Shown piece by piece: positions 17,101-62,297 of a stretch of DNA of 64,000 bases. Position 1 is the stretch's first letter. Each line of letters opens with the position of its first letter. Under the pieces are notes generated by a model. The model worked only from the letters and a program-made list of their open reading frames with translations, did no database searches and was not told the DNA's origin. This DNA comes from Eledone cirrhosa (Eukaryota): contig OZ024754.1 of assembly GCA_964016885.1 (NCBI GenBank), positions 32,302,001 through 32,366,000 of the forward strand, given 5' to 3'. The translations under genes and the position numbers were made by a program.

Positions 17101-20100
17101 AGATAAAACTTTTACCGTGAAAATACAATGGTAAATATAGAGTAATGTAAATGCTCATGGGTTAAGTCTGGTAGTCTTTCATAGTGTCACTTCCATGCTA
17201 CCTTCTTTTCAGTGTCAGTGAGTATATAAATAGAATAAAATAAAAATTAAATAGGAAAGGCCAGTGGGAAGCAAAATAGGCATTAAAAAAATAAAGTAAA
17301 ATCAAAAGCAAGGGCAGCTGTAAAGCAGATAGAAGGTTCTGTTGTTGAATCTTTTCATAACTTCCCAAGATTTACATTGTGTATATCGTATGGAGTTTAT
17401 GCCTACCCCTTCTCTATATATTGAGCAGGGCCTCTTCCCTTAAAGGATCAGGGTCCTGTCTTCTTTCATACTCTCTAGCACTTTAGTTTTGGTTAATTTT
17501 ACTTTCAGGCCTTTTGATTCCAAATTCTGTTTCCATAGATGGAACTTATTTTCTAGTTCTTTTATGGATTCAGCTATAAGGACCTTCTGCAGCTATAAGG
17601 ACCTTCTGCAGCTATAAGGATCTTCTGCAGCTATAAGGATCTTCTGCAGCTATAAGGACCTTCTGCAGCTATAAGGATCTTCTGCAGCTATAAGGATCTT
17701 CTGCATAGAGAGATTCCCTTATATATATATAAATATATTTGAACCTGAAACCATGTGGTTATAAAGTGAACTTCTTAACCATATAGCCATGCTTGCTCCA
17801 TTATTATATATTTATATATTTTTCTTCTAATGTTTTGTTTCATCCCAACCTAGGACCGCATCCGAAATTATATGAACCGTGTGAAAGAGATTGAAGACAA
17901 AGCAAAAGCACCAAGAGTTAACTCAGATGCAGCTAAACGGTTTGTGAGGAATGCTCTTTGGCAGTCTGCTCACAAGAAATCACAGGCTAGCTCAAGTAAA
18001 GGTAGGAATATTAACATTAAATCTGCTAAATATAACCGGTGGTGTTCAAGTCTTTTGAATTCTAACAATAAATGGCATGATGAGCTGTGGTTTCACCAGA
18101 TTGTTTGAGTGAGTTTGTTTGTGTATGCATATATATATATAGAAGTAGTTCCACAACAGTTAGCCCACCATACCGAGAACAAATGTTTCACCCCACTTGG
18201 ATCCTTAGACCGGGCTGAGGATCTGAGTGGGGTGAAACGTTTGTTCTTGGTATGGTGAACTAACTGTTGTGGAACTACTGCTACCAAACTCGTCCCATGG
18301 TCTGAGTGCTCTACTACTACGGATATAATCCACCAGTGTTCTACTATTATATATATATATATATATATATATATATATATAGGCACATACATATATATAT
18401 ATATGTATGTGCCTATATATATATATATATATATATATATAGGCACATACATATATATATATATATATGCACATATATATATATGCACACACACTCACAT
18501 ATGTATATATATATATGTATGGCATATATATATTGGAGGCACATGGCTTAGTGGTTAGAGCATTGACCTTGCAATCGAAAGGTTGTGAGTTCAATTCTCA
18601 GACCGGGTGATGTGTTGTTTCCTTGAGCAAGACACTTTATTTCACATTGCTCCAGTTTACTCAGCTGTAGAAATGAGATGATAGGGACTGGGGTCCATAT
18701 CATTCCACTGCAAAGTGGTCGTGGAGGTGCCACGGCAAAAAAGCACCCAGCACTCACTGTAAATGAGGTTGGTGTTAGGAAGGGCATCCAGCTGTAGAAA
18801 TCAAGCCAGAATCAGTTCCCGTCCCACCCTTGCAAGCAGGGAAAAGTGGACGTAAAATGAAATGATGATGATATATATATATATATATATATATATATAT
18901 ATATATATATATGAGGTTATAATGTAATAGTTGACTATTTTCATTGGTAAGATGAGTTAGGCTCATTTGAAATGAATAGAATGTATTATATAATGTTTTT
19001 ATTAAAACCTGATTAGGAAAATAACATACTTTCTGAGATATATATATATATACCATAAAAAATATTTTTACTGCATTACTACAATATTATTTCACATTTC
19101 TAACTAACGAAATATCTACTAAACATCCTAATAATTTTCAAATCTTTCTACATTAAAAGGATTAGTAAAAAAAATAAGCACTGCAATTTTATCTCATGAT
19201 AACATCCTTTCTAACAACTGTTATAACCAACTAACAGCTTTAATATATTTTAACAGATTTATGAAAAACACCCATAACTCTTTATTTTACTTTTGTATGC
19301 CTAAAATACTATTTTCACAAGCTTATGCCTTTGCTTTTGTACTTTGAATCTTGAATAATTCTTGATAATTTATCTTAGGATTTTAAACAAATTATTATTT
19401 TTATGAAAAGATACGGCTTAGAGAAAAGCACCTATAATGGAGTTACTAAACTGATAATATCTGTTTTTTCTCTACAATTGATGAAATATTCTAGTTGTAT
19501 TGAAACAACTGTAGATGTATAAATAATGATAATAATTATCCTTGGTCTTATTGAATTTTGAATTATATATATATATGTATATATATTAACCTTGGTCTTT
19601 CTTCATTTCATATATGTTTATATATCATCATCATTGTTTAACATCTATTTTCCATGGTAGCATGGGTTAGATGGGTTGTCCCATTTGAGGCAGGTCGAGT
19701 CAGATAACCGTATCTTGCTCATATAGAACTGTTTCTGGCTTGGTTTCTATGGCTGGATGCCCTCCCTAATGCCAACCACGTTTACAGAATGTGCTGGATG
19801 CTTTTTGTTATGAAACCTACATAACCACTTTTTGGAGTGGGCTGGGTGCTTTTTGTTGTGAAACCTACATGACCACTTTACAGTGTGGGCTGGGTGCTTT
19901 TAGTCATGATACTAACAAGACAACTTTATAGTGTAAGGGTGGTGTGATAAGATGTGGTGGGGTGTTAGGGCATGGGAGGTGTATTGAGGGGGAGGGAGGA
20001 TAGTTGTTAAAAGTTGCATACTAGCTCTTTGCTTCAGTCTGTGCACATTGGAAGCTGGGTCTTCTGTATTACTGCATAACACCAAAGATCTCAATATATA

Positions 20101-22140
20101 TAGATATTCATTATCATCATCATCTTGTTTGCATGGTTTGGGTGCTTCTTTGCCAGCATCGCATTCCTCTATTTGTTGTGGTCTTTCAGTTTCTACTCTG
20201 TGAACTTAAGCAATTTAAGATCAGCTCTCACAACCTCTGCCCAGATCACCCGTCATCTCTCTCGACTGCAGTTTCCTCTCACTGCGATTTCTTGGCACTT
20301 TTTCACTCAACGATCATCATCTGTATGCATCACATGTGCACAGTCTTTTCTCTTGCATACTACACCTGATTCCTCTGATACCCAGCTTTCCTCTCAGATC
20401 ATCCATACTTTGTTGTTCAAGTACATTAACATTGTACATTCATCGCGGCATGCTTACTTAATTTCTCTCTAGCCTTCGCATATCCTCTGCATTCACTCCT
20501 CAGGTCTTACTACTAGATGCATGCATGCACACACACACATATTATAAAAGTGGATTAAAATAAAATAAAAATGCTTTCACTCATACACTATGTATAAATC
20601 AGCTCAAATATGCTTTATATGGGGTAAAATCTGTATTTTACAGAGCACTGTATATATATATAAAGAGAAAGAGAGAATAACTAGTACATAGTGTGGTTAA
20701 ATAGAACCTCCTAGATATGGATTTTACTGTCTGGAACAACAGTGAGTTGACAAAGCAGTGTATGGAAATCTGAGATTTGTGTTGAATAAATGATTAAATA
20801 ACACAACACGGTGTACACCTGAACACAACCTAACAAATTTAAATGTTAAAGACAGAATAGAATCCAGGTGGCTAATTATCATCATTTTACACCTTTTTTT
20901 TTCCATGCTTGCATGGGTTAGATGTGTTATCATGTTATGAGACAAGTTAAGTCTGGAGACCACATCATGCTCATATGGATCTGTATTTTGGCTTGATTTC
21001 TATGGCTTGATGCCCTTCCTAACACCAGTCATGTTACAGTGTTGAAATTATTATCACAATAAACTGCATTCCATGCACTTTTAGATTATATAATAACATT
21101 GTGAATAGCATTTATAATGGACTTTTTAGTAACTTATTAAAATCTGGAAGGTTTTTTTTTTTTTACTTCTTCCTGTATGTAAGTTAATGTGTATCCCAGT
21201 TTATGTAGATGGGTTAATGTGTACCTTAGACACTGTAGATGGGTTAATGTGTACCCCAGTTGTAGATGGGTTAATGTGTACCCCAGTTGATGTAGATGGG
21301 TTAGTGTATATCCAAAGTTCTGTAGTGGTTCTACTGTGGACCTCAGTTTTTCTAATTATTTTACTGTGGCCTAAGCTCAGTGCTACTAGTATTGATTTCT
21401 AATCTAGGCACAAGTCCAACAATATAAAGGGAGCGGGCAAGTCGAGCACCTGTATATGACTGGTACTTTATTTAATTGACTTTGGAAGGAGGAAAGACAA
21501 AGTTGACCTTGTCTGGATTTGAACTCAGAATGTAAAAGGCTGTAATTAAATTCTGCAAAGTATGTTGTCCAACATTCTGATTCTGCCAAACTACTCTAGG
21601 ACTACTACTACTACTACTACTACTACTACTAATATTAATAATCTTTTAACTTTGATTTGCACGATTAGTGTCACGATAAAATGTACCTGGTGCACTCTGT
21701 AGGGTGTGGGAATGTATGTAAGTGGGATGCCGTCTGTGAAGTCTGTAGCTCTGATTAACCCTTTAGCATTTAAAACCGCCGTAACTGGCCGCTCATACTG
21801 ACGTTAAGGTATTGTTCTCAAAATGAATAATATATAAAAATCTCATAGATTCAATATTATGTGAGATAAAGCCTTTACCGTGAAAATACAATAGTAAATA
21901 TAGAGTAATATAAATGCTAAAGGGTTAAATACTGACTTCATCTGTGAGGATCCTTCAAGTCTTTGCTAGCAGGGAGAATGCATGTTAACTGATGATGATG
22001 AAATATTTCTAAATTGTTTGTCTTGTCACCTTGATTTTTCAGCTGCAGCTGACCAAGACAGAATAGATGAAGCCCCACCCCCAAAGAAGAAGAAGAAACA
22101 AAACAAAAAGAAATCTAAAAAAGGAAAACACCCAAAGTGA
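14020..22140 (+). CDS. C1D: Nuclear nucleic acid-binding protein C1D (Rrp47, Sas10/C1D domain, exosome cofactor), 5 coding exons (14020-14154, 15412-15478, 16821-16876, 17854-18001, 22043-22140), 167 aa
   Basis: GT..AG introns in consistent phase. Product contains [48 protein letters not shown] and [11 protein letters not shown], matching vertebrate C1D ([23 protein letters not shown] / [15 protein letters not shown] / AASRFVKNALW). Confidence 0.95.
15412..15478 (+). CDS. C1D: C1D coding exon 2
   Basis: Polypyrimidine tract + c[24 protein letters not shown]. Confidence 0.94.
16821..16876 (+). CDS. C1D: C1D coding exon 3
   Basis: ttttgcAG acceptor, GTAAAT donor; [19 protein letters not shown]. 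Confidence 0.92.
17571..17704. repeat. 19 bp tandem repeat, ~7 copies
   Basis: CAGCTATAAGGA(C/T)CTTCTG. Confidence 0.9.
17854..18001 (+). CDS. C1D: C1D coding exon 4
   Basis: cctAG acceptor, G|GTAGGA donor; [16 protein letters not shown]...RNALW. Confidence 0.93.
18144..18347 (+). mobile_element. Mini fold-back PLE remnant with hammerhead (18209-18251) in C1D intron 4
   Basis: Inverted arms ~18144-18207 / 18215-18279, tail to 18347, (TA)n flanks; ACCGGG-CTGAGGA...GAAA-CGTTTG-TT-CTTGGT. Confidence 0.7.
18535..18870 (+). mobile_element. tRNA-derived CORE-type SINE followed by an RTE-like tail
   Basis: A box TGGCTTAGTGG, B box GAGTTCAATTC, CCTTGAGCAAGACACTT core; 3' GAAAAGTGGACGTAAAATGA..(TGA)n matches the RTE end at 3205-3229. 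Partial copies at ~22955-23065 (+) and ~56340-56450 (-). Confidence 0.75.
20112..20510 (-). mobile_element. Degenerate RTE LINE 3' fragment (C1D intron 4)
   Basis: Reverse complement resembles 3000-3229; (CAT)n tail. Confidence 0.7.
21759..21924. mobile_element. piggyBac-type MITE (other copies: 10427-10602, 11695-11891, 13038-13416, 15976-16189, 16947-17161)
   Basis: TTAA-CCCTTTAGCATTTA ... TAAATGCTAAAGGG-TTAA: terminal inverted repeats with TTAA target duplication. Confidence 0.85.
22043..22140 (+). CDS. C1D: C1D coding exon 5 (basic tail)
   Basis: tttttcAG acceptor, phase fits exon 4; [32 protein letters not shown]. No family homology recognised for this exon. Confidence 0.75.
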
Positions 22141-62058: not shown

Positions 62059-62297
62059 ATAAGGAAAAAAGATGAAATCGAAAATGCAACTGGAGTCTTT
62101 TTAAGAATATTTATTTGGTTCCTTTACCGGTTTCACAGTTCTTATGCTTTTCAAAAGTAGAATTGAGATGGAGGGTTTGTGGTTATTCTCGTAAGATGCT
62201 CTAGTTGCATTTTCGATTTCATCTTTTTCCCTTATACTTTCACTCGTGTAGGACATCTCGTTTTTTTTCATTTTGGGAAAAACCCTTCATTTTCTGA
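62059..62297 (+). mobile_element. Mini fold-back element with a degenerate hammerhead in the spacer (minus strand) and a ~60 bp tail
   Basis: Arms 62061-62095 / 62199-62233; spacer reverse complement TTGAAAA...GAAA-CCGG-TA; (TA)n flanks. Confidence 0.6.

Follow-up and report, generated by a model that had tools for sequence, protein, structure and literature searches.

What kind of mobile element leaves a hairpin with one end longer than the other? The question is raised by a 64,000-nt stretch of the Eledone cirrhosa genome (assembly GCA_964016885.1, contig OZ024754.1, positions 32,302,001 to 32,366,000 of the forward strand; hereafter the window), which has 34% GC, is rich in (TA)n and contains six short fold-back elements. 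All six consist of (TA)n, a tail-less inverted arm, a direct arm, a tail of 61-168 nt and again (TA)n. We refer to their families as A (18144), B (32846), C (37954), D (38474), E (45275) and F (62059), and to that of a 5.8-kb element in the same window as G; L-numbers (e.g., L121) designate genomic or metagenome loci that were compared with the window elements. On sequence grounds, the six elements are cut-down 3' ends (pseudo-long terminal repeats, pLTRs) of six families of Penelope-like elements (PLEs).

Parent elements of the six fold-backs

The layout is as the initial annotation had described it at all six sites, with (TA)n on both sides; in the 5.8-kb element, to which it had likened them, the tail lies on the minus strand. 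A blind scan of the 44 segments of 80-900 nt between (TA)n runs in the window returned six fold-backs, exactly the six noted, and cut the 45277 element at a TA run within its tail.

Longer genomic copies of all six families run into reverse transcriptase (RT) and GIY-YIG endonuclease frames, five of Hydra type (A-E) and one of Neptune type (F), which bears out the proposal that the elements are PLE 3' ends and not miniature inverted-repeat transposable elements (MITEs). The family B window copy matches the final 283 nt of a 3.5-kb tandem element at 99% identity, and its parent (L121) has an intact 808-codon Hydra-type frame, with the tail end abutting the next frame. Family A is linked through L103 and L105, where it runs into decayed remnants of RT and endonuclease, family C through coding fragments in L153 and L154, family D through L252 and L231 together with a near-intact relative in L250, family E through an endonuclease region upstream in 11 of 25 loci and the tandem L156, and family F through L250 and L251, with a GIY-YIG match at E 0.0014. 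Partial tandems that form pLTRs occur in L121, L122, L156, L250 and L229.

By alignment, family B and the relative of family D have RWK/RWR, DKT and a CxCX5C linker and lack CCHH; the Hydra motifs of family C come from fragments, and A and E were assigned solely through similarity to B. The Hydra-type label of A-E is a provisional one, drawn from motifs and similarity. Their proteins have 70 homologues at E<=1e-10; GIY-YIG is scored in 3 of 33 homologues, and a minority of the members of their Atlas clusters have GIY-YIG or RVT_1. Family F fragments contain DKG, a CxxC linker and the GIY-YIG cysteines, features that do not separate Neptune from Nematis. Family G, with DKS and a CX4CxxC linker, is only uncertainly placed in Neptune; it has an RT/GIY-YIG frame on each arm, the tail-less arm being the longer, and in Pfam its open reading frame (ORF) matches RVT_1 at E 2e-4 (below the cut-off) and GIY-YIG at E 1.3e-5 (above the cut-off).

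Exact-pattern counts across the genome are 22,207 for E, 5,549 for D, 1,569 for C (a 31-mer of the hammerhead core), 1,326 for F, 501 for B and 383 for A. De novo clustering of 208 tailed fold-backs, a sample of fetched loci that is enriched for the families searched, gave 40 clusters, 21 with at least two members. One family F fold-back recurs at least seven times within a segmental duplication at G000:C8:39.5-40.1 Mb (L125, L126, L131-L135). Other pieces of these families also lie in the window: at 60383-60498 (-) a tail-less arm from a relative of family D, its minimal hammerhead (60487) complete, and nearby a decayed Hydra-type endonuclease fragment (~60986-61269, +); at 60053-60113 a solo tail-less arm of family E beside (TA)n; and at 59638-59752 a family G-like tail piece, 78% identical and also beside (TA)n.

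Two 3' termini, a duplicated hairpin and preferred 5' ends

Among copies selected by their tails, the outer end of the inverted arm is fixed in most (64-71 nt from the tail end in A, 166-169 in B, 95-97 in C and 62 in F), while the inner ends scatter. A check of the arm ends had been proposed earlier, and this outcome, a fixed outer end with a variable inner junction, is not MITE behavior. Target-site duplications (TSDs) are unreadable because the flanks are (TA)n on both sides. For families D, E and G, whose tail words are too common for a DNA search, copies were sought through upstream queries and patterns. A sample of 180 arms, taken in genome order by means of internal 20-25-mers, divides into 67 that stop at the tail end, 89 that stop at the arm end and 24 that stop elsewhere, and 149 of the 156 arms ending at either terminus are TA-flanked. 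Typed arm pairs comprise one tailed and one tail-less arm in 53 of 57 cases (pairs with both arms in the sample are counted twice), as two-site priming, suggested by the initial annotation, would have it. We did not find this mixed pairing in the literature searched. Rare fold-backs with a tail on both arms occur at L009/L022, L066, L124 and L156.

In all five of families A-E, a hairpin begins 3-9 nt behind the arm end. Its design is an RCUC stem, a 2-nt 3' bulge and GAGY(-RCU), over 16-70 nt. At all four tandem junctions (L121, L156, L250 and L229), a second copy begins 5-11 nt behind the tail end, and none of 1820 upstream control positions qualifies as such a hairpin; it was not found at the termini of families F and G. 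Read from these positions, the tail corresponds to the interval separating two copies of one putative hairpin signal, and the long tail of family B is accounted for in large part by its long hairpin loop. Its likely role, suggested by this geometry and by the work of Frangieh et al. (2024, PMC11167929), is to position the RT and to determine how long the tail is.

The hairpin is not confined to these families. It is present in 133 of the 208 tailed fold-backs (shuffle mean 2.0, maximum 7), and in at least half of the members of 16 of 33 clusters outside A-G (a hand count; some are related to A-E). With the closing base left unconstrained, the closing pair across 26 hairpin types is A-U in 15, G-C in eight and unpaired in three, and pairing continues above the 2-nt 3' bulge in 19, the loops being unrelated. 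In sequence from other organisms (metagenome contigs), 23 of 34 related ORFs have the hairpin upstream (versus 18 of 680 shuffles), nine of them as two copies, and in 17 of 41 3' regions it follows the hammerhead core by 73-104 nt. By eye, the 3' copy in L447, L453, L452 and L481 stops short, by a few bases, of a hairpin still present in the 5' copy; L449 and L461 continue through as tandems, and L485 departs from the pattern. We found the hairpin neither in Rfam nor in the literature searched, which did not extend to the supplements of PMC8557442 and PMC11167929. Two further occurrences lie in the window: a near-symmetric fold-back with converging arms and a 3-nt tail (52707-52907), whose polarity is opposite to that of the six elements, and a piece (~41410-41498, -) of another abundant family with an 80-nt tail, in which 29 of 31 members have the hairpin.

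At the 5' side, copies of two families end preferentially at one position. Eighteen of the 30 family F copies that reach +7 end at +1 to +7 of a putative start (CC/TC-A, 32 nt below TATAAAA), none ends in the next 27 nt, and 12 extend further. In family C, 12 of 30 end at +1 to +9 (six exactly at +1), 31 nt below a TATA box; three further ends lie 5-8 nt beyond and 15 copies continue. Both arms of the family C window copy stop within 13 nt of the putative transcription start. Family A has a weaker pile-up 8 nt before the hammerhead core (16 versus 2 ends in adjacent 18-nt bins), and the direct arm of its window copy begins at this preferred position. The simplest reading is that the pile-up would represent run-off to the RNA 5' end after priming in a promoter-proximal pLTR. 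In the literature searched, we met no report of 5' ends accumulating 31-32 nt below a TATA box.

Only per-locus counts were used for the pile-up; exact 22-mer counts across the putative start (1,326 versus 460 in F, 2,269 versus 72 in C) are inflated by subfamily variation, notably in C. Dropped from the counts were six segmental duplicates of one F locus and one of A, window self-copies, L045 (identical to L007), hits below 85% identity and arms with neither terminus, as well as the first family C search, which used the whole hairpin as query and favors like-sized copies. Apparent stops at 378 in B and at 221, 260 and 337 in D proved to be reference divergence rather than ends. Contig depth, which is not copy number, rises several-fold in the final 300 nt of the pLTR compared with upstream sequence or the ORF. 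An extra cap-derived G at +1, sought by eye in C and F copies, was not decisive.

The earlier statement that most of the elements contain CUGANGA/GAAA hammerhead motifs holds loosely. The strict motif is present in three of the six (37954, 38474 and 18144) and the hammerhead is complete in both arms of the family C element; the others have variant or half cores, family B the GAAA half only. Intact examples occur in other family F copies, and we regard as putative variants the CAGAAGA core of family E, with a 5-bp stem III and at least 22,207 exact copies genome-wide, and the CCGAAGA core with a long stem II in the family B parent (L121:4261). Predicted hammerheads in the C, D, E and G references and in F copies pass our descriptor; A (weak) and B (variant) were judged by eye. 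The descriptor found five strict motifs in the window and none in any of ten shuffles. Seventeen arbitrary 10-kb stretches contained 10 strict and 20 strict-plus-variant hammerheads (10 shuffles each gave 0 and 0-3), from which, at an assembly size of 3.0 Gb, we roughly estimate ~10^5 hammerheads per genome. Whole-window and local Rfam scans had no hammerhead among the matches listed, which are dominated by microRNA-like hits to palindromes, and ten metagenome loci gave no hits at the gathering score. Hammerhead cleavage was considered as the source of the 5' ends and rejected: only 0-1 ends per family lie within 3 nt of the predicted cut. With no clustering of 5' ends where it would cut, we read the hammerhead as a passenger in these insertions.

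Table 1. Coordinates of fold-back elements, hammerheads, hairpins and SINE-like copies in the window; element and motif assignments are predictions.
Feature	Position	Strand	Details
Family A fold-back, Hydra-type PLE 3' end	18142..18347	+	arms 18144-18208 / 18215-18279; tail 68 nt to 18347
Family A minimal type I hammerhead	18207..18251	+	CUGAGGA core 18215; weak stem II; failed by descriptor
Family A hairpin	18288..18307	+	behind arm end; 1-nt bulge
Family G head-to-head PLE insertion	25310..31141	both	2563-nt inverted arms; 424-nt spacer
Family G tail and arm	25310-25365 (tail, ~56 nt); 25366-28039 (arm)	-	
Family G spacer	28040-28463		
Family G tail-less arm	28464-31141	+	
Family G 5'-truncated PLE ORF, RT and GIY-YIG	28041..30650	+	mirror copy 25853-28039 on minus
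Family G minimal hammerhead	30936..30986	+	core 30944; second copy 25559 on minus
Family B fold-back	32846..33242	+	arms 32846-32959 / 32961-33074; loop 1; tail 168 nt
Family B hairpin	33079..33147	+	long loop
Family C fold-back	37953..38347	+	arms 37954-38097 / 38108-38251; tail 96 nt
Family C complete minimal type I hammerhead	38146..38211	+	core 38160; mirror copy 38045 on minus
Family C hairpin	38260..38285	+	behind arm end
Family D fold-back	38474..38846	+	arms 38474-38577 / 38657-38760; loop 79; tail 86 nt
Family D hammerhead cores	38658; 38576	+; -	CUGACGA; stem II damaged
Family D hairpin	38763..38782	+	behind arm end
Family E fold-back	45277..45456	+	arms 45277-45307 / 45333-45362; tail ~90 nt
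Family E variant core	45301		CAGAAGA
Family E hairpin	45373..45418	+	behind arm end; G-C closing pair
Family F fold-back, Neptune-type PLE 3' end	62062..62296	+	arms 62062-62109 / 62184-62232; tail 61-64 nt
Family F degenerate U3-A8 hammerhead variant	62117..62162	-	UUGAAAA core; tail-less arm only
SINE-like copies	51405-51585; 51647-51832; 52500-52685; 59356-59517; 62342-62530; 62743-62939		

The window also holds a ~185-bp family resembling short interspersed elements (SINEs), with many copies, several of them beside (TA)n. A 606-bp repeat is present in opposite orientations at 31524-32129 and 45496-46099 (95% identity, TA-flanked at both sites), and we take it to be a 3' fragment of a long interspersed element (LINE). 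Decayed frames at 43676-44209 (+), 42468-42788 and 51886-52284 (-), which resemble restriction-like endonucleases of non-LTR elements, had no Pfam match.

Proposed mechanism and alternatives

We hypothesize, with good though not full confidence, that the elements are 5'-truncated head-to-head insertions of PLE 3' ends, in which the two target strands prime at two RNA sites that are likely set by the duplicated hairpin in the five Hydra-type families. The enzymatic steps, all of which we infer, would be as follows. The GIY-YIG endonuclease would cut (TA)n, the target bias being seen in the flanks. One end would prime 3-11 nt before the first hairpin, yielding the tail-less arm, and the other before the second, yielding the tailed arm; the hairpin positions are observed, and the geometry suggests their causal role. 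A few UA bases seen at both sites in four tandem junctions could pair with the target. The two complementary DNAs (cDNAs) would then stop variably, as the variable junctions suggest, and be joined head to head. In families F and C, many cDNAs would stop at the likely RNA 5' end, as the pile-ups at the putative transcription start indicate; many short F and C copies would be run-off products, without the TATA box. A broader reading, on which we are evenly divided, is that across the Hydra clade the duplicated hairpin positions two RTs, one per cut target strand, and in this way determines both 3' termini and the tail length, and that run-off, strong-stop-like cDNAs primed in the promoter-proximal copy make up most of the ~10^5 hammerhead fold-backs.

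Several observations weigh against this two-site model or parts of it. The proteins of A-E have no direct match to a Pfam family or PDB chain, and their RT/GIY-YIG identity derives from motifs, homologues and Atlas clusters. The family A pile-up comes without a TATA box and with 10 ends in the downstream bin; B, E and G have no clear pile-up, and D is obscured by subfamily divergence. Families F and G share the design with two termini without the hairpin, so that not every PLE requires it; the short hairpins fold weakly in isolation (z -0.4 and -0.6), and the motif could act as a DNA or endonuclease signal. In vitro, the Anolis element PAc showed no strand difference in start site in the parts of PMC11167929 covered. 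Finally, 101 of the 180 sampled arms have no detected inverted partner within 1.5 kb and the inner junction is non-random in some families, so the architecture is less universal than the initial annotation had it.

The strongest competitor, which we nevertheless consider unlikely, also starts from PLE 3' ends but has the inverted arm made by one cDNA that folds back and primes itself (or made on an antisense template), after which endonuclease resolution leaves the tail; the hairpin would then serve the endonuclease as a signal in DNA. Both self-priming and resolution by the endonuclease are published proposals (passages of PMC3846280 and PMC8557442), the D. virilis tail is required for endonuclease recognition (as cited in the parts of PMC11167929 covered), and some junctions are near-perfect palindromes, such as that at 32846 with a loop of 1. 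However, the tail-less arm often reaches further 5' than its partner (in the 5.8-kb element, the family F window copy and many others), which is impossible for a copy that folds back from the tailed arm. Moreover, the second hairpin, observed at tandem junctions only, is not part of the tailed copy and therefore acts on the template side.

Less probable still, and in our view rather remote, is that the short elements are non-autonomous families in their own right, with SINE- or retrozyme-like masters whose 5' end is fixed, and that PLE protein mobilizes them in trans, as opposed to their being single abortive products. The sharp 5' boundary in F and C would suit such families, as would several F copies that are plain (TA)n-unit-(TA)n without inversion and one junction common to 4 of 30 family C hairpins, and retrozymes have been proposed as pLTR-derived (bioRxiv 10.64898/2026.07.22.740005, in the part covered). 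Yet junctions mostly differ between copies, the short copies are collinear with long ones that enter ORFs, the TATA box lies outside the short unit, and in the loci read we noticed no arrays in which the short unit is repeated in tandem; the head-to-head pairs are contiguous with coding elements, unlike the tandem non-coding units of retrozymes. An origin as TA-targeting MITEs of DNA transposons, to which the short, high-copy, TA-flanked elements rich in inverted repeats and the 52 symmetric fold-backs also present in the loci might point, has practically nothing left to recommend it and is refuted for the six elements by the links to RT/GIY-YIG frames in six of six families, with the one-sided tail and variable inner junction likewise against it and many of the symmetric cases being the same PLE families cut by internal TA runs.

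Comparison with known systems

In twin priming of L1, as here, both target strands prime on the element RNA and an inversion is left. The second L1 primer anneals far upstream, and the inverted segment is no duplicate of the 3' end, whereas here the arms overlap as a palindrome because both starts are adjacent.

The fold-back architecture itself is not new, and the initial annotation's description of the system as under-described cannot be kept, since the architecture, (TA)n targeting, hammerheads and two-site priming are all in print. In the parts of these papers covered, Craig et al. (2021, PMC8557442) describe for PLEs an inverted 5'-truncated copy and a 30-40-bp tail, along with (TA)n targets, and hammerheads in Hydra elements; Frangieh et al. 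(2024) found in vitro that two internal RT starts bound the tail and that cutting and extension take place on both strands; Arkhipova et al. (2013, PMC3846280) report head-to-head palindromes, TATA plus TCACT in the pLTR and pLTRs as solo copies; Cervera and de la Pena (2014, PMC4209133) report minimal hammerheads, a U3-A8 variant and opposite-strand pairs 100-700 bp apart; and transcription begins in the pLTR (PMC2377424). Cephalopod repeat surveys name Penelope families without this anatomy in the parts covered (PMC13282606, PMC6962438).

Families A-E resemble the Hydra clade (Craig et al., 2021) in RWK/RWR, DKT, CxCX5C, the lack of CCHH, pLTR hammerheads and (TA)n. As described in the sections covered, that clade comprises few families, mostly cnidarian and shorter than 3 kb, in contrast to the 3.5-kb units of very high copy number found here; tails given as 30-40 nt for PLEs are 66-168 nt here, and those sections do not mention the hairpin that is duplicated here at both termini. 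The Adineta vaga Penelope elements (Arkhipova et al., 2013) share the inverted pLTR, optional tail, palindromic junction, TATA and solo pLTRs, but they are low in copy number, have visible TSDs and solo pLTRs ascribed to recombination or deletion, and in the passages covered show no 5'-end pile-up at the initiator. Like the metazoan PLE hammerheads of Cervera and de la Pena (2014), those here are minimal type I, include U3-A8 forms and opposite-strand pairs, and are mostly ascribed to truncated PLEs; that study reports, in the parts covered, at most about 9,000 per genome, versus our rough estimate of ~10^5 with a different descriptor, and U4A and U4C cores were not found in those parts.

The closest functional parallel is offered by the Poseidon element PAc of Anolis (Frangieh et al., 2024, in the parts covered), which also has two tail-bounding starts downstream of the hammerhead and near the ORF start, an AT-rich target and a hammerhead whose cutting is dispensable, with a binding region 3' of the start sites and a predicted dimer. 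The PAc starts lie inside the ORF in an AC-rich stem-loop, whereas those here precede the ORF, with a hairpin copy behind each; genomic pairs here use one site per arm, as against the absence of a strand difference in PAc in vitro. How the RT chooses between two internal starts, and how tailed and tail-less arms arise, stands as an open question in the parts covered of PMC8557442 and PMC11167929, and it becomes testable with the two additions made here, the duplicated hairpin and the pile-up at the putative start. They offer a defined cis-signal at both start sites of distant Hydra-type elements that lends itself to disruption, relocation or duplication in the in vitro assay already available, with L121 as an intact, recently active element on which to do so, and an annotation rule for a very large class of short palindromes otherwise filed as MITEs or unknown repeats.

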